A DNA stretch of 23,626 nucleotides from a virus (IMGVR_UViG_3300047546_003009); one strand, 5' to 3'; counted from the stretch's first letter, positions 803 to 23,507 are shown. Numbers and translations: made by a program. The notes: generated from the letters alone by a model not told the origin.

Positions 803-1656
803 ACGCTAAGCTGTTTTAATCTTTGTTCAATAGTATCTACATACTTTGCATCTATAATATTGATTGTTTTTTTAGCTTCGTTTTGTATCTCTTCGTAATC
901 GTAAGCTGTTACTGGTGACCAGTATACTGCCTCTTGCTCTGTTATTACTGTAAGAAGAGTACTCACTGACGTAATAGTTGCCGTTGTGTCGCCACTATAG
1001 TTTTGAATAGTCTGGCCAACAACAAACTCACCATCTATCTTGTCAAGAGTTAATGAACTGCTGTCTTGTGTTTTTAGAAAGCCGGATGCTGTCGTAGTTC
1101 CCGCTGCGACTTGCAAAATCTTATCGCTTCCACTAAATGATGTGCCTGTTGTAATCGTGTAACCTACAGAAATTATTTTATTTGTTTCAACAGAAAGACC
1201 CAGTGGATTTCTTACATAAGAAGATACCCCACCAAAATAATCATAAACCTCAGACCAATATTTTTTTAACGATGCTGGTAAAGCATTATACCCCGGAACT
1301 GTTAACGATGTTTCATCATTTTCCCAGTTGACAGTGTAAAAAAGAATTTTTTCTTGAGCATATTCTACAGAACCGTACTTGTCAACAAGATACCCAGCAA
1401 ACTCGCTGTATGAAAGTGGCCAGTCATAATACGGATCAACAATATCATTAGCAAGATATATCAGCCATGCGTATTCAGGACTACCGTAATATGCATTAGC
1501 AATAGTATCGGGCCTATCTCCATCCTTTATGACATACGGATGATACGTGTATGGATTTTGTCCTTGTGTAGCCACCAACTTGAGCTTACTAAACACATTG
1601 GTAGCAATTGCACCACTATGTGTTATAGGAGGTGCATATGATAGAAACTTTGACAT
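799..1656 (-). CDS. gp53: baseplate wedge protein gp53 (LysM-like N-terminus)
   Basis: Motifs YVIKDGDRPDTIANAYYGSPEYAWLIYLANDIVDPYYDWPL and C-terminal YDYEEIQNEAKKTINII. Confidence 0.88.
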   Translation of the reverse strand: MSKFLSYAPPITHSGAIATNVFSKLKLVATQGQNPYTYHPYVIKDGDRPDTIANAYYGSPEYAWLIYLANDIVDPYYDWPLSYSEFAGYLVDKYGSVEYAQEKILFYTVNWENDETSLTVPGYNALPASLKKYWSEVYDYFGGVSSYVRNPLGLSVETNKIISVGYTITTGTSFSGSDKILQVAAGTTTASGFLKTQDSSSLTLDKIDGEFVVGQTIQNYSGDTTATITSVSTLLTVITEQEAVYWSPVTAYDYEEIQNEAKKTINIIDAKYVDTIEQRLKQLSV

Positions 1657-1680
1657 CTATTATTAACTCCAGTCTACATG

Positions 1681-3129
1681 CTACCAGGTGCCGGTAGCTC
1701 CTATTGGTCTATTTGCATCACGTGTTGTAGTAGCACTGCTTCGTTGTGCAGCAGCTGCTCGTATTTTTTCACCCTGGCGCGCAAGGTTTGGATTAACTGT
1801 GACGGCACCACCACCAGTTACGTTAGCTGGTCTAGGTGTAATCGTTTCCCACCGTTTTAATTCTCTTTTATCATCTGCTTCTGTTGGTGATTTAATTTGT
1901 TTTTTTATACTGTTACTATTATTACCAGGTGGTTGTGTTGGCTGTGCTGCAGGTTGTTCATTGTTTAGTGGAAACTCGTTTAAATCCTTATCAACATCGT
2001 TTCTTGTTAGTATCTCATATTCAATGACTGAAATAGCCATGTCGATAACTGCTGGATGTTTTGCGTCGTCATTAAAAAATAGTGGACCTTCGGGACCATA
2101 GTTTATAGCGACTGACTGGACAAAACATTTTTTAAATGGAAACACACTTTTACCTAAAGGCGATATTTCTATACTAACCTCATCGGGATACCCTAAAATT
2201 AAACCAGGTGAAGGTCCACCAAGCGATGGTAAGCTTCTTGCTTTAATCTGCTGTATAATTTTTCTAAGCTGCTGGGATTCTGCTTCGGACTTTGGTGCAA
2301 ATCTAAAGCTGAAATTGAACGATCTTAAATTTACTGTTTCAAAAGCTTGTGATTCGTTAGGATTGACAACCGCACCAATTGCTCTTTCAGCAGCGTATGG
2401 AATATTTTGATTCACAGACATTGCTGGACGGATTACGTACTGATACAGTATGGCAGCCATCTGATCTCTAGCAAAACCACGATTGATTATATCATTCATT
2501 GCTGTACGAGCTTCTGATGAAGATGAAGCAGTACGAATCTGATTGACCGCATCCATTGCACCACTTAAAGAAAGTCCAGCCATTGGACCATAACCAAACT
2601 TTCTATATTGCAAGTTAACTGTATCAACTAAATTAGTCGGAATTGGTAGAACCAATGTGTAGTTGTGAATAGCTCTTGTTTTACCAGCAAGCTCGCGCTT
2701 TTCAACTCTCTTAAAGCTAAACGTTATTGAAAAATCTTGATTCAAGTCTGGTGGGAAAACTTCAATATACGGATTCTCAGAGCTAGAATACTGACCAACA
2801 ACCTTCTGTGGATTTGACGTGTTGTTCACGTTATCTGACGTTTGTCGCTCGTTCAATGCCTGCTTAAAGCCTGAATCCTCTGTACCAACCTTACCTGACA
2901 GCATTTTTGTAAGGCCTTCGGTTTTTTCTACGCCAGTGCCAATAAGATTTTTAAGAACATTGTTTCCCTGTAGTAGCTGATCACTTGCAATTCCAGCAAT
3001 TGTCTGTGATCCTGAAGCAAAAGAACCAGTTGGTGCAAACTTGTTAATGCTCTGCAACAAATCTCTTGCAGTTTTGTCTGAAACAGTCTGACTGCTTGGA
3101 TTTGTGAAAAAACTTGGGTCTATTGCCAT
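1681..3129 (-). CDS. gp48: baseplate tail-tube cap gp48-like
   Basis: Motifs LPIPTNLVD, VNPNESQAFETVNLRSFNFSFRFAPKSEAESQ, YPDEV and FKKCFVQSVAINYGP; adjacent to gp53. Confidence 0.82.
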   Translation of the reverse strand: MAIDPSFFTNPSSQTVSDKTARDLLQSINKFAPTGSFASGSQTIAGIASDQLLQGNNVLKNLIGTGVEKTEGLTKMLSGKVGTEDSGFKQALNERQTSDNVNNTSNPQKVVGQYSSSENPYIEVFPPDLNQDFSITFSFKRVEKRELAGKTRAIHNYTLVLPIPTNLVDTVNLQYRKFGYGPMAGLSLSGAMDAVNQIRTASSSSEARTAMNDIINRGFARDQMAAILYQYVIRPAMSVNQNIPYAAERAIGAVVNPNESQAFETVNLRSFNFSFRFAPKSEAESQQLRKIIQQIKARSLPSLGGPSPGLILGYPDEVSIEISPLGKSVFPFKKCFVQSVAINYGPEGPLFFNDDAKHPAVIDMAISVIEYEILTRNDVDKDLNEFPLNNEQPAAQPTQPPGNNSNSIKKQIKSPTEADDKRELKRWETITPRPANVTGGGAVTVNPNLARQGEKIRAAAAQRSSATTTRDANRPIGATGTW

Positions 3130-9817: not shown

Positions 9818-10063
9818 TTAGATTGGAAGTTTTGACGTCTTTGGTAGAAAGTTCAATGTTTCGGCTTCGGTTCTAATCTTAGCTTTAAACTTTTGGTTTT
9901 GTTTGATTAGCTGAGCTGCTGTTTCAATTTCCATGTTGTTCTTCTCACAGTAATAAACAACAGCGTCAATATACTCCATTTTCTTTTCAGTGACAAGCTG
10001 CTCCACTTCACGAAGAAAATCTTTAACAGTAATAACTGTATTAACTTTAAGTTCATCTGTCAT
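9818..10063 (-). CDS. gp33: late transcription co-activator gp33
   Basis: Motifs YIDAVVYYCEKNNMEIE and EAETLNFLPK. Start moved to ATG 10063, which overlaps the upstream stop (ATGA). Confidence 0.88.
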   Translation of the reverse strand: MTDELKVNTVITVKDFLREVEQLVTEKKMEYIDAVVYYCEKNNMEIETAAQLIKQNQKFKAKIRTEAETLNFLPKTSKLPI

Positions 10064-10581
10064 TTGTAGAATATGTGGTCGCCTATCTGTACTACTTTGT
10101 TGTACTTCCATTGTGGCCTCACGTATGTTGCATGAAAATAAGTTGCACCGCTTGTAGGGTCTAGATTAGGATTATACCTATACCACACATGAGAGGCAAC
10201 ATTGTAAGCGAGTTCCCATCGCTGCTTATTTGGAACTCGAGGTTGTTCGCATACCCAAGAAAACTGGCAGACTGTTTGGTTTGTGTCGGGGTTCTTGGTT
10301 TTCTGATAAACTACTTCACATACATCTGAAGGCCAACGCTGACTATATAGTCGATTTAATGTAACGAACGCTACAGCCTTCATACCTTCTATTGGTTGAT
10401 TGCCAGCTTCAAAGTAAACGTTATCAGCTAGGCATCTTATTTGTCTCTTAGCATCCAAATAACCTTGCTTCGAAACATGGGGAGTAATTACTGTTTCATC
10501 TGTTGTAGCAAGATGGCACAATGCAATAATAAAGGCTGCAGATACAGTAATAGCAGCTCCCACAAGAGCTTTTACTATCAT
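10060..10581 (-). CDS. SleB-like (Hydrolase_2) cell wall hydrolase with N-terminal hydrophobic segment
   Basis: Motifs CLADNVYFEAGNQPIEG, AVAFVTLNR, CQFSW, GATYFHATYVRPQW and IGDHIFYK. Confidence 0.88.
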   Translation of the reverse strand: MIVKALVGAAITVSAAFIIALCHLATTDETVITPHVSKQGYLDAKRQIRCLADNVYFEAGNQPIEGMKAVAFVTLNRLYSQRWPSDVCEVVYQKTKNPDTNQTVCQFSWVCEQPRVPNKQRWELAYNVASHVWYRYNPNLDPTSGATYFHATYVRPQWKYNKVVQIGDHIFYK

Positions 10582-14138: not shown

Positions 14139-14324
14139 TTACTTGTAGTTGTTGTAATCATATTCTGATAGATCATCCAGTCTATCAAAATCCTGGGTTT
14201 TAATGTATTTATCAATACTCCGAAAAGATTGTCGGTCTTGTCTGCTTTTCTGGTATTTAAAGTAGTGACCGTTGTTTTCGTAATCGTCAGCAACTTTTGA
14301 CGACTTCTTAAACGTCTTGCTCAT
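14139..14324 (-). CDS. hypothetical protein
   Basis: 61-aa ORF with an ATGA overlap to the upstream gene. Confidence 0.6.
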   Translation of the reverse strand: MSKTFKKSSKVADDYENNGHYFKYQKSRQDRQSFRSIDKYIKTQDFDRLDDLSEYDYNNYK

Positions 14325-14758
14325 GCTTTCTGACTCTCCTTGACAGGAATTAGATCGGGGAATGCTTCATTAATAATTTTTGCCGTGATTCCCTTAAACG
14401 GCAATTTTTTATCTTTCATACAGTTGACAAGTTTTGCATCTTTAGGGTCGATCGACTCAATTAACTGAATGTATAACATTTCTCGCTTAAGGTTTGTTAG
14501 GTTTGGATTACCACCTTCAAGGAACAAATAGAGACGACGAACCTCGGTGTATAGTCTTGCTTCCTGGTCAACGTACGGACATGGTTTAAAAGGAGGTTCA
14601 CCCTTAGGTAGAGCAAATTTAATTTGAGGGTCAAGAGCATACTTTAGCACCGTGCGCAAAGCACCGTTATCGTTCCTGCGTAACAAATCAATCTTCTCAG
14701 CTGGTGTCTTACATTTAGACACCTGCTCCAAAATCTCATACATGCTTTGTTTTTTCAT
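14321..14758 (-). CDS. conserved T4-like hypothetical protein found next to RNase H
   Basis: Motifs LPKGEPPF, LYLFLEGGN, KREMLYIQLIE and EAFPDL. Start set at ATG 14758 (TAATG overlap). Confidence 0.75.
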   Translation of the reverse strand: MKKQSMYEILEQVSKCKTPAEKIDLLRRNDNGALRTVLKYALDPQIKFALPKGEPPFKPCPYVDQEARLYTEVRRLYLFLEGGNPNLTNLKREMLYIQLIESIDPKDAKLVNCMKDKKLPFKGITAKIINEAFPDLIPVKESQKA

Positions 14759-15627
14759 TAAAATTCCCCAACACATTCCATAAGGTTTTTAAGCTTCTTA
14801 TTAATAAAGTAATTAAACATCTTACCTCTCTTTATAGTGCATCCGTCTTTCTCTTGCTCAAATACTGCAATCGCTTTTGAAACAATATCGTTGGGAACAA
14901 ATGAAAGGTCAATCAGCTGTTGGTTACGCATGTAACCACGCTTGATGTCTTCAGGCTGATCATCAATCCCATTCTCAATAACATTGGAGATGAGTTTGCT
15001 GGTTACCTTTCTTTGGCGAACGCCACTCACAAAGCAATCATCACTAGACAAGATGTTAGGCACACCATCTCCACGATCACCTTTGATAATCTGCTCTTTA
15101 ATAAACTTTGACGGGTCACTATGAGCAATCATTTTATTCTTGATTGGATCGTACTGTTTTACGTTAGCGTATTGTTGTAATTGAACAAAGTCTTTGTCAC
15201 CAGAAACAATAACAATATCTTCAGCTGTGTTGTTATTTAGCTCGACGCCGTATTTTGATACGAGTGACGCAATGATATCGTCAGCCTCAGCATGGTCTAG
15301 GTGAATGACAATATAGGGAAAGTTCTCTTTGAGCTCGTCACGGATCTTGTTAAGAAGATCAAATACACCAACCCAATCAAAGTCAGAAGCTTCGCGGTCT
15401 TTCTTGCGATTGGCCTTGTAGTTTGGGAATATGTTTTTTCGCCAGTTGTTTTTACCATCACAAGCAATAACAACGGTTTGATGTTCCTTGAACATCTGGC
15501 GAACGTTGCGAATTTTATTGAGGATCATGTGCCGTACAAGATCCTCTTCGAGTTTGACGTTTGTGTGGTTACCAATCTGAGCCATTATATTTGAGATGGC
15601 GATCTGATTGTAGTCAATGATAATCAT
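14758..15627 (-). CDS. rnh: T4-type RNase H (5'-3' exonuclease)
   Basis: Motifs MIIIDYNQ, WRKNIFPNYKANR, EADDIIA, SGDKDFVQL and GDRGDGVPN. Start set at 15627. Confidence 0.93.
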   Translation of the reverse strand: MIIIDYNQIAISNIMAQIGNHTNVKLEEDLVRHMILNKIRNVRQMFKEHQTVVIACDGKNNWRKNIFPNYKANRKKDREASDFDWVGVFDLLNKIRDELKENFPYIVIHLDHAEADDIIASLVSKYGVELNNNTAEDIVIVSGDKDFVQLQQYANVKQYDPIKNKMIAHSDPSKFIKEQIIKGDRGDGVPNILSSDDCFVSGVRQRKVTSKLISNVIENGIDDQPEDIKRGYMRNQQLIDLSFVPNDIVSKAIAVFEQEKDGCTIKRGKMFNYFINKKLKNLMECVGEF

Positions 15628-15628
15628 T

Positions 15629-16570
15629 TTAGTATTGAATCTTCTTTTCGTTAAGAATCTGCTTAAGGAACAGCGTCCATTGCTGCTTACGCATTTCCCA
15701 TCCATAGAAGATATTACTATAACTTTGTTGATTAATCAACCGCAATTTGATTTGTTCGTTGTGAACGTTTTGAATTGCCGCGTCAAGTTGGTGATAGAAC
15801 AGCATTGCGTGATCACGCTTGTCCTCAAGGAACTGATACATCCATGTCCAGTTCGCTGCCGTTTCGTAGAGTGCACCGTAGTTTGGATGAACGCAGATTA
15901 GACCAGCAGACATTGCCTCCATAAGTGCACGGCAGCTCGTCTCCATCCAAATAGATGGATATGCAAAAATATGAGCACTAGCAACAGCATCACGAACAAC
16001 CGGTTGTTCGGCAAAGCCATGGTAGTTCACTTTAGGATTTGCTTTAAGCATGTCGAACACTTGTTGGTACTGTTTATCACGTTCTTCAAAGTTGTACATC
16101 TTAAAGCTTGAGAAAACATCAAGAACGATGTTATCGTGCTTTTCACAAAGTTTATCAAACACAGGAGCAAGAAGCTCAAGACCACGATGAGGTGTAGTGT
16201 GGTAGATAATTCGAATTACAGAATCATCTTTCTCTTTGGAAGGGATTGGATTGATTGCGTTTTGAATGACAACACACTTGTGCCATGGAATGCCATAGTA
16301 GCTGACAAACTGTTGCATTTGCCAGTTGGAGACGAATACAAGCTTTTCGTATTGATTATAACCACCTGCCTTAAGGTGTTCACACTCAGGATCACCTACA
16401 AGATCGTGAGCCCAATAGATGGGAATCTTTCCCGCTTCGTGACCTCGAAAGCGAGAAGGAACAATATGAAAATGCTTCCAGATGTTTTCATCAATGTGGC
16501 TTTTGAACTCCTCAATTAAGAGCTCTGTGCCACCCTTTGCACCTTTGTTAACAATATCAAGACCCATCAT
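15629..16570 (-). CDS. GT-B fold glycosyltransferase
   Basis: Motifs GGTE, FVSNWQ, YHTTPHRGLELL and YPSIWMETSCRALMEAMSAG (EX7E motif). Confidence 0.85.
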   Translation of the reverse strand: MMGLDIVNKGAKGGTELLIEEFKSHIDENIWKHFHIVPSRFRGHEAGKIPIYWAHDLVGDPECEHLKAGGYNQYEKLVFVSNWQMQQFVSYYGIPWHKCVVIQNAINPIPSKEKDDSVIRIIYHTTPHRGLELLAPVFDKLCEKHDNIVLDVFSSFKMYNFEERDKQYQQVFDMLKANPKVNYHGFAEQPVVRDAVASAHIFAYPSIWMETSCRALMEAMSAGLICVHPNYGALYETAANWTWMYQFLEDKRDHAMLFYHQLDAAIQNVHNEQIKLRLINQQSYSNIFYGWEMRKQQWTLFLKQILNEKKIQY

Positions 16571-16854
16571 GCCACCATGTCAATTCGTTTGACTGAATCA
16601 ATTTTAAAAGAACGCCAAGCACTCTTTTCAACATCCCACACAGCAAACACATCATCATTTGCTTCTTTCTTACGGTCGGTCTTTTGCTCGTAAGGAACAA
16701 CAATGTTTTCTTGTAACGTACACTTCATGACACGTTCCGTACCATCTTTTTTGGTAAACGTCACATTTACAGTATTCTCTTTAAGAACACTAGACAGCCA
16801 TTTACGAAAAGACGGTTTATCTTCTTTACTCCACTCCAATGCGCTCATTATCAT
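16567..16854 (-). CDS. SH3/Sm-like beta-barrel protein (WYL_2/DUF2693-like)
   Basis: Motifs VTFTKKDGTERVMKCTL and VWDVEKSAWRSFK. Confidence 0.75.
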   Translation of the reverse strand: MIMSALEWSKEDKPSFRKWLSSVLKENTVNVTFTKKDGTERVMKCTLQENIVVPYEQKTDRKKEANDDVFAVWDVEKSAWRSFKIDSVKRIDMVA

Positions 16855-17191
16855 ACCTCACAATAAAAGTTTTCAGTTTTTGACGACTTGCTTGATCTAT
16901 CATGTTTTGGGTTCCATTAGAAACCCCATCCCAGAAACATATTAATGCATCACCATATTCAGCCATTTGCTTATTACGAATAGGACCTGCTGCCTTACCA
17001 TACTTTTTCCAGTCGGCAGGAAATCTTTTTATCGGGATGTTATATTTTTCTGCGTATGTGATTGCAAGTGTATCTGCACCATCAGCACATCCAGAAACAA
17101 TTTCAGTTATCGGCCACTCGATCTTGTTTAGATATTTCTCAAGAAGATTGAAGTCGCTAAATGTTCTCGTTCCGGCTATTATTAGTTTCAT
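16826..17191 (-). CDS. YspA-like SLOG-family protein (DUF2493)
   Basis: Motifs IIAGTR, IVSGCADGAD, GKAAGPIRNKQM and FWDGVSNGT. Start set at 17191. Confidence 0.82.
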   Translation of the reverse strand: MKLIIAGTRTFSDFNLLEKYLNKIEWPITEIVSGCADGADTLAITYAEKYNIPIKRFPADWKKYGKAAGPIRNKQMAEYGDALICFWDGVSNGTQNMIDQASRQKLKTFIVRYDNERIGVE

Positions 17192-17726
17192 TTTCAACAC
17201 CAAGCTTGCAAATAAAGTAACTATCGATTAGGTCTGAAGATGGATTCCATTGTTTTGATGTCATAGAGAGTGTATGTTTAATATCAAACCCAGTTTCAGC
17301 GATAAAGCTTTCTTCCATCTTCTGTTTATCAGCATTACCTTTACCTGTAGCAAACTTCTTAATCACAGTTGGAGGCACTGCTAGGTAATCGATGTGATTT
17401 TTCCACAGCAGAAATTTACAAATGCCACCGTTTTCGGCAATATGAAACACCTTGCCTTTTGAACCATAACTATAGTCTTCTATAAAGACTTTTTCAACAC
17501 TTTGAGATTTGCAGATATCAACAATCCATGTAGCGATGTTATTGTATCGCTCGCTATCACAAGTATATTCTGGAAACACCTCGCCATGAAGCTTTGGGTG
17601 GACGTAAAGATATTTGTCTTTGGAAGTGAGGAAGTAAAACTCACATTTATCAAACTCAAATTTGTCACCACGAAACAGGCACAGCGCAGGTGATGTCATT
17701 GATAGATCAACACCTAGTATAATCAT
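17157..17726 (-). CDS. RuvC-like Holliday junction resolvase
   Basis: Motifs ILGVDLSMTSP, FIEDYSY, IKKFATGKGNADK and DLIDSY. Confidence 0.8.
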   Translation of the reverse strand: MIILGVDLSMTSPALCLFRGDKFEFDKCEFYFLTSKDKYLYVHPKLHGEVFPEYTCDSERYNNIATWIVDICKSQSVEKVFIEDYSYGSKGKVFHIAENGGICKFLLWKNHIDYLAVPPTVIKKFATGKGNADKQKMEESFIAETGFDIKHTLSMTSKQWNPSSDLIDSYFICKLGVENETNNSRNENI

Positions 17727-22184: not shown

Positions 22185-22213
22185 ACTATACTGCAGTTTG
22201 AACTACTTGTCAA
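22185..22213 (-). promoter_or_regulatory. early promoter repeat
   Basis: TTGACA-17 nt (containing AGTTCAAACT)-TATAGT. Confidence 0.78.
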
Positions 22214-22949: not shown

Positions 22950-22978
22950 AGTATACAACGGTTCGAACTAAAGGTCAA
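22950..22978 (-). promoter_or_regulatory. early promoter repeat
   Basis: TTGACC-17 nt (containing AGTTCGAACC)-TATACT. Confidence 0.8.
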
Positions 22979-23182: not shown

Positions 23183-23211
23183 ACTATACAACAGTTCGAA
23201 CTAGAAGTCAA
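23183..23211 (-). promoter_or_regulatory. early promoter repeat
   Basis: TTGACT-17 nt (containing AGTTCGAACT)-TATAGT. Confidence 0.8.
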
Positions 23212-23332
23212 CATGTTTAACTCGGTGTTTCTCGTGGCGTTTGTACTGTTTCTTCATCGCACATACCCGCAAACGGTACTTCGGAGTGCGCAAATCCTTG
23301 TGAACCTGCGATTGCTTACGCCTGTACGACAT
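23201..23332 (-). CDS. small basic protein resembling alternative ribosome-rescue factor ArfA
   Basis: GAGG RBS and ATG at 23332: MSYRRKQSQVHKDLRTPKYRLRVCAMKKQYKRHEKHRVKHVDF*. The pattern LxxPx[FY]RxRVxxxKK..YxRxxKH matches ArfA. Confidence 0.55.
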   Translation of the reverse strand: MSYRRKQSQVHKDLRTPKYRLRVCAMKKQYKRHEKHRVKHVDF

Positions 23333-23459
23333 TTTCCTCTCGCTTTTCAAGGGTTTCCAGCACGTTTTTGACGTACGTCTGCACGTACAGCACGCGCAAA
23401 TCATCGGTTTTGCAGTCTTTCAGCACTTCGTGCACATGCTTGAGGAACATTTGATCCAT
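23316..23459 (-). CDS. hypothetical early protein
   Basis: Start reset to ATG 23459 (MDQMFLKH...) behind GGAG; 47 aa. Confidence 0.6.
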   Translation of the reverse strand: MDQMFLKHVHEVLKDCKTDDLRVLYVQTYVKNVLETLEKREENVVQA

Positions 23460-23478: not shown

Positions 23479-23507
23479 ACTATCCCACAGTTCGAACTAA
23501 AGGTCAA
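23479..23507 (-). promoter_or_regulatory. early promoter repeat
   Basis: TTGACC-17 nt (containing AGTTCGAACT)-GATAGT. Confidence 0.72.

Follow-up and report, generated by a model that had tools for sequence, protein, structure and literature searches.

Ribosome rescue by ArfA is the closest described counterpart of the gene considered here; off the ribosome, ArfA is disordered. It is regarded as the least widespread of the rescue factors and is reported only from Gammaproteobacteria, some Betaproteobacteria and a few Bacillus, with none in 2,376 Alphaproteobacteria or 162 Cyanobacteria (PMC11633108). The arfA gene is expressed from an mRNA truncated at a hairpin inside its own ORF, and the full-length product carries a hydrophobic, destabilizing tail (PMC8012679). 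Residue F25 of ArfA fills the V198/F217 pocket of RF2, and the strand Q27–E30 extends the RF2 beta-sheet (PMC8012679; PMC6299226). An N-terminal segment (within residues 1–14) becomes ordered on RF2 opening, and the KH motif contacts the mRNA channel—a contact common to BrfA (PMC8012679). No single residue of the ArfA tail is essential (PMC6299226), and the E. coli variant ArfA(A18T) binds and recruits RF2 with activation blocked by steric hindrance (PMC8012679).

Two further small factors, and two phage genes, frame the comparison. ArfT of Francisella tularensis (40 aa), compared here by description, resembles the 43-aa mini-protein of this study (P0001) in being tiny, basic and encoded by a normal ORF with a stop codon, free of nonstop-mRNA control, and the mRNA channel is the presumed site of its basic C-terminal tail (PMC6299226). 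Unlike P0001, it has no hydrophobic residue at the F25 position; it works with RF1 or RF2, and it is chromosomal and found in Francisella only. BrfA of Bacillus subtilis depends on RF2 for rescue, is expressed from a nonstop mRNA and has a KH motif as in ArfA (PMC8012679); by its description, it is otherwise unrelated in sequence. In phages, gp30 of pelagiphage HTVC027P (transcribed early and late; PMC12753301) and g10 of Citromicrobium phage RXM (PMC8953757) are annotated as ArfA. Both ArfA-like ORFs were named from a direct match to PF03889, their function being putative, whereas P0001 belongs to a GKG-less type (DUF7230) that annotation pipelines leave as “hypothetical.”

The stretch of viral DNA analysed here (“the window”; 23,626 nt) is a fragment of a T4-superfamily myovirus, with genes for gp32, gp59, RNase H, DNA ligase, PhoH, dCMP deaminase, baseplate gp53, tail-tube gp19 and a tail lysozyme. 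The closest relatives of its gp32 are in cyanophages, uncultured marine viruses and Sinorhizobium phages (~62–64% identity). Megablast of the early region against phages gave no match, and a near-identical cultured phage was not found. The right-hand 2.5 kb is an early array in which small minus-strand ORFs stand singly or in pairs, each behind a sigma70-like promoter of the pattern TTGACN, 17 nt, TATAGT-like, with a AGTTCGAACT box in the spacer. A promoter scan found seven promoter-like sites where 1.7 were expected, and four matches to the boxed pattern where none were expected. The palindromic box (Table 1) could be an operator.

A preliminary description had reported a 43-aa ORF with a strong ribosome-binding motif in this array, and both the quoted peptide and such a motif are present; the ORF lies on the minus strand, behind a sigma70-like promoter. 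P0001 is the second gene of its early unit, and its ATG overlaps the final 17 nt of the 47-aa ORF upstream, so that the two look translationally coupled. P0001 ends in V-D-F-stop (23201–23211), and the sequence that encodes this ending is at the same time the −35 region of the next promoter; V-D-F also occurs near the C-terminus of two relatives (P0006 and P0028). A second locus, L001—from an unrelated sequencing run and another sample—carries a copy of P0001 that is 93% identical, differing by five synonymous and three non-synonymous changes. When a conserved partner was sought among the other loci compared, the upstream 47-aa gene and a downstream 58-aa gene proved to be kept in the near-identical L001 only; the upstream gene is therefore no family-wide partner.

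Table 1. Positions of the features discussed. Coordinates are those of the window unless preceded by a locus identifier.
Feature	Position	Strand	Basis or remark
P0001 gene, 43-aa basic mini-protein, ArfA-like/DUF7230-family	23201..23332	minus	ORF (ATG 23332-23330, stop TAG 23203-23201), homologues, profile link to ArfA
Shine-Dalgarno-like GAGAGG	23336..23341	minus	3 nt 5' of the P0001 ATG; identical in L001
47-aa acidic/helical ORF upstream of P0001	23316..23459	minus	Opens the early unit that it forms with P0001
Sigma70-like early promoter of the two-gene unit	23479..23507	minus	TTGACC, 17 nt, GATAGT, TG-extended; AGTTCGAACT box in spacer
Next early promoter	23183..23211	minus	-35 box overlaps the final codons of the P0001 gene
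Early promoters sharing the palindromic AGTTCGAACT box, always at one position of the 17-nt spacer	22186-22213, 22951-22978, 23184-23211, 23480-23507	minus	Box also conserved in L001
Permuted (two-piece) tmRNA, tag ANDEKFALAA	10569..10983	minus	ARAGORN; Rfam tmRNA_permuted 143.7 bits, beta_tmRNA 128.9 bits
DUF6433 protein, replication module	14321-14776	minus	Adjoins RNase H
Group-1 glycosyltransferase, replication module	15629-16570	minus	
YspA/SLOG-family protein, replication module	16826-17203	minus	PF10686
In-ORF hairpins of bacterial DUF7230 genes	L169:1600-1700, L170:1600-1700, L173:1590-1690, L211 ~1596-1705		
Permuted tmRNA 2.3-4.4 kb from a mini-protein gene	L023:2239-2680, L025:562-922		
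tRNA-array loci	L004/L005:7339-9901, L026, L061, L064, L078, L052, L019, L011-L018		

Taken as the sole query, P0001 had no match in Pfam, NCBIfam, PHROGs or PDB sequences, and its comparison with the Pfam models PF03889 (ArfA) and PF23876 (DUF7230) reported none at E ≤ 10; tblastn against phages gave one weak match, in a Roseobacter phage. A phmmer search of 1.84 billion cluster representatives recovered six relatives of 42–53 aa and 51–65% identity. A further match, a 2,365-aa protein (P0005), was dropped as it looks compositional or coiled-coil. The profile of the six relatives then gathered 2,165 proteins (E ≤ 0.01), mostly members of PF23876, two of which carry the name ArfA in JGI naming. 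Against the Pfam cut-offs (27 bits for DUF7230, 25.5 bits for ArfA), relatives of P0001 match PF23876, some of them above its cut-off, namely P0006 (28.6 bits), P0090 (34.4 bits) and P0084 (27.5 bits). In alignments, DUF7230 and P0001 share a length of 38–55 aa and the pattern N-x-V-A/H-K ... Y-x-R-K-x-K-H (also given as N-P-V-A-K...Y-x-R-K-x-K-H). P0001 differs in belonging to a divergent sub-branch, with P0002, P0004 and P0011, that is marked by MS[YF]..., V-H-K-D/E-L and Cys24. Across the family, columns K12–Y19, R22, V23, Y30, R32, K35 and H36 are nearly invariant; R32 and K35 are invariant, and Y/F at position 19, R22, V23 and H36 reach at least 90%. The Pfam annotation of DUF7230 records no function, and our literature search for DUF7230 found no mention of the family.

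The DUF7230 family is very large and mostly phage-borne. A scan of IMG/VR confirmed 293 P0001-family stretches in viral contigs, and the metagenomic contexts of family members are phage-like. Among cultured phages the family occurs in 60-odd records, where all features shown are “hypothetical” or unannotated. The carriers are mainly T4-like Acinetobacter phages, together with phages of Roseobacter, Pelagibacter, Ralstonia and Microcystis and one Tegunavirus; the profile search adds a member in Sinorhizobium phage phiM7. In Acinetobacter phage ZZ1 the homologue lies among small early genes and adjoins rIIA. In bacteria, 6 of 300 genomes sampled from one class, and 2 of 401 from a phylum, have a DUF7230 gene. 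Unlike ArfA as surveyed, the family thus reaches phages of Alphaproteobacteria and Cyanobacteria.

How this family relates to ArfA was judged from pairwise, profile and HMM comparisons and from natural intermediates. BLASTP aligns residues 12–45 of E. coli ArfA (NC_000913.3, with which the core given in the preliminary description agrees) to residues 6–36 of P0001, with 12 of 34 positions identical (E = 0.029) and one 3-residue gap, at GKG. For profile comparison the ArfA set comprised E. coli arfA and 27 diverse ArfA genes from PF03889 genome scans (28 in all). Against it, 120 family members gave an hhalign probability of 87–89%—that is, below 95%—with P = 2.5e-6 to 4e-6 over 36–37 columns, and again a single 3-residue gap exactly at GKG, in agreement with the alignment of the preliminary description. 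The real score of 29.7 compares with a mean of 8.6 (sd 2.1, maximum 15.4) for 150 column shuffles that keep composition and with 9.5 for the reversed family alignment. The family HMM likewise gives E. coli ArfA 22 bits and other ArfAs up to 25.9 bits, whereas 1,120 shuffled ArfA decoys stay at or below 7.4. Profile similarity to ArfA, the absence of which had been set in advance as grounds for abandoning the proposal, is thus present, with shuffles reaching at most half the score and HMM decoys in agreement, but it is present at family level. P0001 itself scores 3.4 bits against the ArfA HMM built here, inside the decoy range, and falls below the PF03889 cut-off; by these scores it is among the least ArfA-like family members. 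Because P0001 by itself scores within the decoys, its link to ArfA is family-level and transitive.

The intermediate steps of that link can be followed in several proteins. Pfam cross-matches, though weak, run in both directions (E. coli ArfA vs. DUF7230, E = 0.11; P0022 vs. ArfA, E = 0.006; P0008 vs. ArfA, E = 0.42), with P0008 and P0022 at 10.5–16.5 bits against PF03889, and of all six-frame translations of a whole Escherichia genome, that of arfA matches DUF7230 best. P0024, a 70-aa JGI metagenome protein, is a tandem duplication whose first repeat carries KKGKGS and whose second is of the GKG-less DUF7230 type. Repeat 1 joins the motif A-K-D-L-R-T...K-Y-K to K-K-G-K-G-S-F and passes Pfam ArfA at 27.4 bits; a 40-aa ORF at L167 likewise joins the family motif with KGKGS, at 36.9 bits. 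These two hybrids alone pass the PF03889 cut-off. P0001 aligns pairwise to P0024 repeat 1 (E = 3e-6) and to the L167 ORF (E = 1e-5) with the same GKG gap, and P0024, on its motif content, bridges the two Pfam families as a natural hybrid. Language-model neighbours of P0001 include DUF7230 and ArfA clusters, which we treat as a lead only. In 300 genomes of one class, PF03889 occurred in 4 and PF23876 in 6, with an overlap of 0; as the expected overlap was just ~0.08, this mutual exclusion is uninformative.

Residues were mapped onto ArfA from the hhalign register, family conservation and the structural literature (PMC8012679; PMC6299226). The P0001 family aligns over ArfA residues 13–48, both proteins being small and basic, and the length of P0001 equals that of the part of ArfA ordered on the ribosome (~46–48 residues). 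P0001 keeps P23, an aromatic residue at F25, R26, R28, V29, K33–K34, Y39, R41 and K44–H45. Specifically, Y19 corresponds to F25 and R20-L21-R22-V23 to R26–V29, while K27–K28 correspond to K33–K34, Y30 to Y39, R32 to R41 and K35–H36 to K44–H45; the docking aromatic and strand, and the basic C-terminal tail with its KH motif, are thus present at the level of sequence. The differences lie elsewhere. GKG (35–37), and with it the KGKGS motif, is deleted, so that K27–K28 are directly followed by Q29–Y30. ArfA residues 1–12 are without counterpart, six P0001 residues preceding the aligned part, and the hydrophobic helix 15–24 is replaced in the family by a charged, nearly invariant V/A-K-D-L-R-T block. 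In place of A18, P0001 has a lysine (K12); given the A18T defect, RF2 activation may work differently or fail. The tail and docking strand of P0001 accordingly look ArfA-like in alignment, whereas the activation end does not. Complex prediction for P0001 (72-row alignment) with E. coli RF2—a stand-in that may differ from the host’s factor—gave a median of 0.30 against a mark of 0.32, a score that we count neither for nor against binding.

Regulation is where viral and bacterial members of the family part. P0001 has its own stop codon and a polar C-terminal tail, and RNA folding of its 3' region found no hairpin and no more stability than in shuffled sequences (z = +1.6 and +0.1), whereas the positive control arfA has a 3' hairpin at z = −7.3. 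Unlike ArfA, then, P0001 is without an RNase III or terminator hairpin and without a hydrophobic degron tail, and it is phage-borne and early. Bacterial DUF7230 genes at L169, L170 and L173 carry 15–22-bp hairpins within the ORF, towards its 3' end (z = −4.7 to −7.1), a fourth at L211 has a terminator-like hairpin and U-run inside the ORF, and in L173 and L211 the tail following the hairpin contains hydrophobic runs. Because they share the nonstop-mRNA design of E. coli arfA, these bacterial genes are probably unrecognized ArfA-type genes where PF03889 finds nothing. At 19 non-redundant viral loci, by comparison, the ORF stops 0–19 residues (median 9) after KH and the median fold z is −0.3. 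Viral members stop soon after KH without a hairpin and are therefore “pre-truncated” and unregulated. The preliminary description had noted the stop codon and the lack of a hydrophobic tail and had proposed an escape from nonstop/tmRNA control; the two observations are borne out, and the proposal gains support from the contrast between hairpin-free phage members and hairpin-bearing bacterial members and arfA.

Two alternatives would remove P0001 from this picture altogether. The ORF might have arisen by chance between two promoters and be no translated gene, as its very short length and a 3' end dictated by the −35 box of the next promoter might suggest. This we regard as scarcely credible: its homologues begin at the same MS[YF], synonymous changes outnumber non-synonymous ones in L001, and thousands of motif-bearing homologues occur in unrelated phages with differing flanks. 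On the mostly synonymous changes, the shared start and the thousands of family members, the P0001 ORF is by comparison a real gene rather than a chance one. It could instead encode a generic basic peptide—nucleic-acid-binding or serving host takeover in some other way—and resemble ArfA through convergence or composition. The pairwise E-value of 0.029 and the lack of a Pfam match for P0001 leave room for this reading, and short K/R-rich peptides do readily match spuriously, the 2,365-aa P0005 being an example. We nevertheless hold it to be improbable, since composition-preserving shuffles and decoys fall far below the real scores, all the alignments agree on one single indel, natural intermediates exist in P0024 and L167, bacterial DUF7230 members have the arfA hairpin design, and arfA is the best DUF7230 match in a whole Escherichia genome. 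Alignments, decoys and RNA folding together show the DUF7230 family to be homologous to ArfA; it has retained the key positions and, in phages, has lost the regulatory hairpin. Homology and gene architecture thus support the ArfA-like reading.

P0001 keeps company with a second rescue system, the permuted tmRNA of the window (Table 1). None of the window ORFs scanned was recognized as smpB or as a release-factor gene; a 173-aa ORF beside the tmRNA (10060–10581) was considered as SmpB and rejected, being a cell-wall hydrolase. Among the ten largest IMG/VR contigs with close homologues of P0001, nine carry a permuted tmRNA that scores above the Rfam threshold, including all six that are ≥90% complete (the tmRNA-bearing contigs are those behind L005, L008, L017, L038, L063, L067, L082, L051 and L078). 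Tags read from tmRNAs in the flanks of related loci are ANDNVYSEDLRLAA and ANDELFAIAA, and 13 of 41 viral loci have an array of 3–23 tRNAs ≤5 kb downstream of the mini-protein gene. A permuted tmRNA is absent from the five cultured T4-like phages taken for comparison; since two of them, ZZ1 and phiM7, do carry the mini-protein, the co-occurrence is not universal, and it may reflect the shared descent of one phage lineage. The window shows, even so, that the phage lineage of P0001 invests in ribosome rescue twice, through the mini-protein candidate and through tmRNA.

The function that we lean towards, at slightly better than even confidence, is that of a constitutive ArfA-type ribosome-rescue factor. 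With an early, host-type promoter and a complete ORF ending in a stop codon, P0001 would be made independently of trans-translation activity, in contrast to bacterial ArfA. Its basic C-terminal half (K27–K28, Y30, R32, K35–H36) would thread into the mRNA entry channel, which is empty in ribosomes that have stalled at the 3' ends of truncated mRNAs. The block ending in P-K-Y-R-x-R-V would take the place of ArfA P23–V29, with Y19 standing for F25 and R-L-R-V for the strand added to the RF2 sheet, and would recruit a host class-I release factor—RF2 by analogy, although RF1 is also possible. The release factor would then hydrolyse the peptidyl-tRNA and return the ribosome to the pool available for phage mRNAs. 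A benefit is likely where mRNA cleavage, induced by the phage or by defence, makes nonstop complexes numerous; the phage also brings its tmRNA. Ribosome binding, release-factor recruitment and phage benefit are each what we infer from analogy with ArfA.

An ArfA derivative need not be an active one. P0001 might instead be a trap or blocker that enters the empty mRNA channel, and perhaps docks a release factor, without triggering hydrolysis. Its effect would be to lock ribosomes that are nonstop or vacant, to sequester RF2 or to exclude the host’s tmRNA–SmpB, serving host shut-off or a redirection of rescue to the phage’s own tmRNA. It is the unlike activation end that keeps this alternative under consideration, as an unlikely one. 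The nearly invariant lysine aligns to A18, where ArfA(A18T) recruits RF2 without activating it (PMC8012679), the 12 N-terminal residues of ArfA are without counterpart, and constitutive early expression suits a takeover factor; the alignment is, however, least certain in just this N-terminal part. ArfT (40 aa), equally unlike the ArfA N-terminus, is an active rescue factor (PMC6299226), an arfA-type feedback hairpin in bacterial DUF7230 genes suits a back-up rescue factor and not a toxin, and the phage tmRNA suggests that rescue is wanted. In its broadest form—DUF7230 as a widespread, phage-spread and deregulated ArfA lineage, re-engineered at the activation end so as to lock nonstop ribosomes or RF2, or to exclude the host’s tmRNA–SmpB—we think the idea more doubtful still. 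Were this locking or exclusion true, control of ribosome rescue would pass to the phage, which in this lineage brings its own permuted tmRNA for a later stage of the infection.

To return to P0001 as a rescue factor, the DUF7230 family as an ArfA relative that is mainly viral, whose viral form is without GKG and nonstop control, and that travels with phage tmRNA, appears undescribed so far. As the family is a stripped-down ArfA relative, many phages would, by analogy, probably have an unregulated means of their own to release ribosomes held up on broken mRNAs. If the proteins of the family are active, phage auxiliary genes would commonly target ribosome rescue, rescue of the ArfA type would extend far past its known host range, and the family would provide a natural minimal, GKG-less ArfA variant with which to dissect stop-codon-free release-factor recruitment. 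It would also supply a candidate function for a Pfam DUF and for genes left unannotated in dozens of cultured phages, in which it is directly testable.

Some smaller observations concern neighbouring genes. L001 contains an extra 285-aa gene (L001:1506-2363), with weak matches to nSTAND NTPase and AAA_16, that is missing at the corresponding place in the window. The replication module of the window includes, besides its T4-type genes, the glycosyltransferase and YspA/SLOG-family genes of Table 1 and the DUF6433 gene, whose pairing with RNase H recurs in L208–L210.
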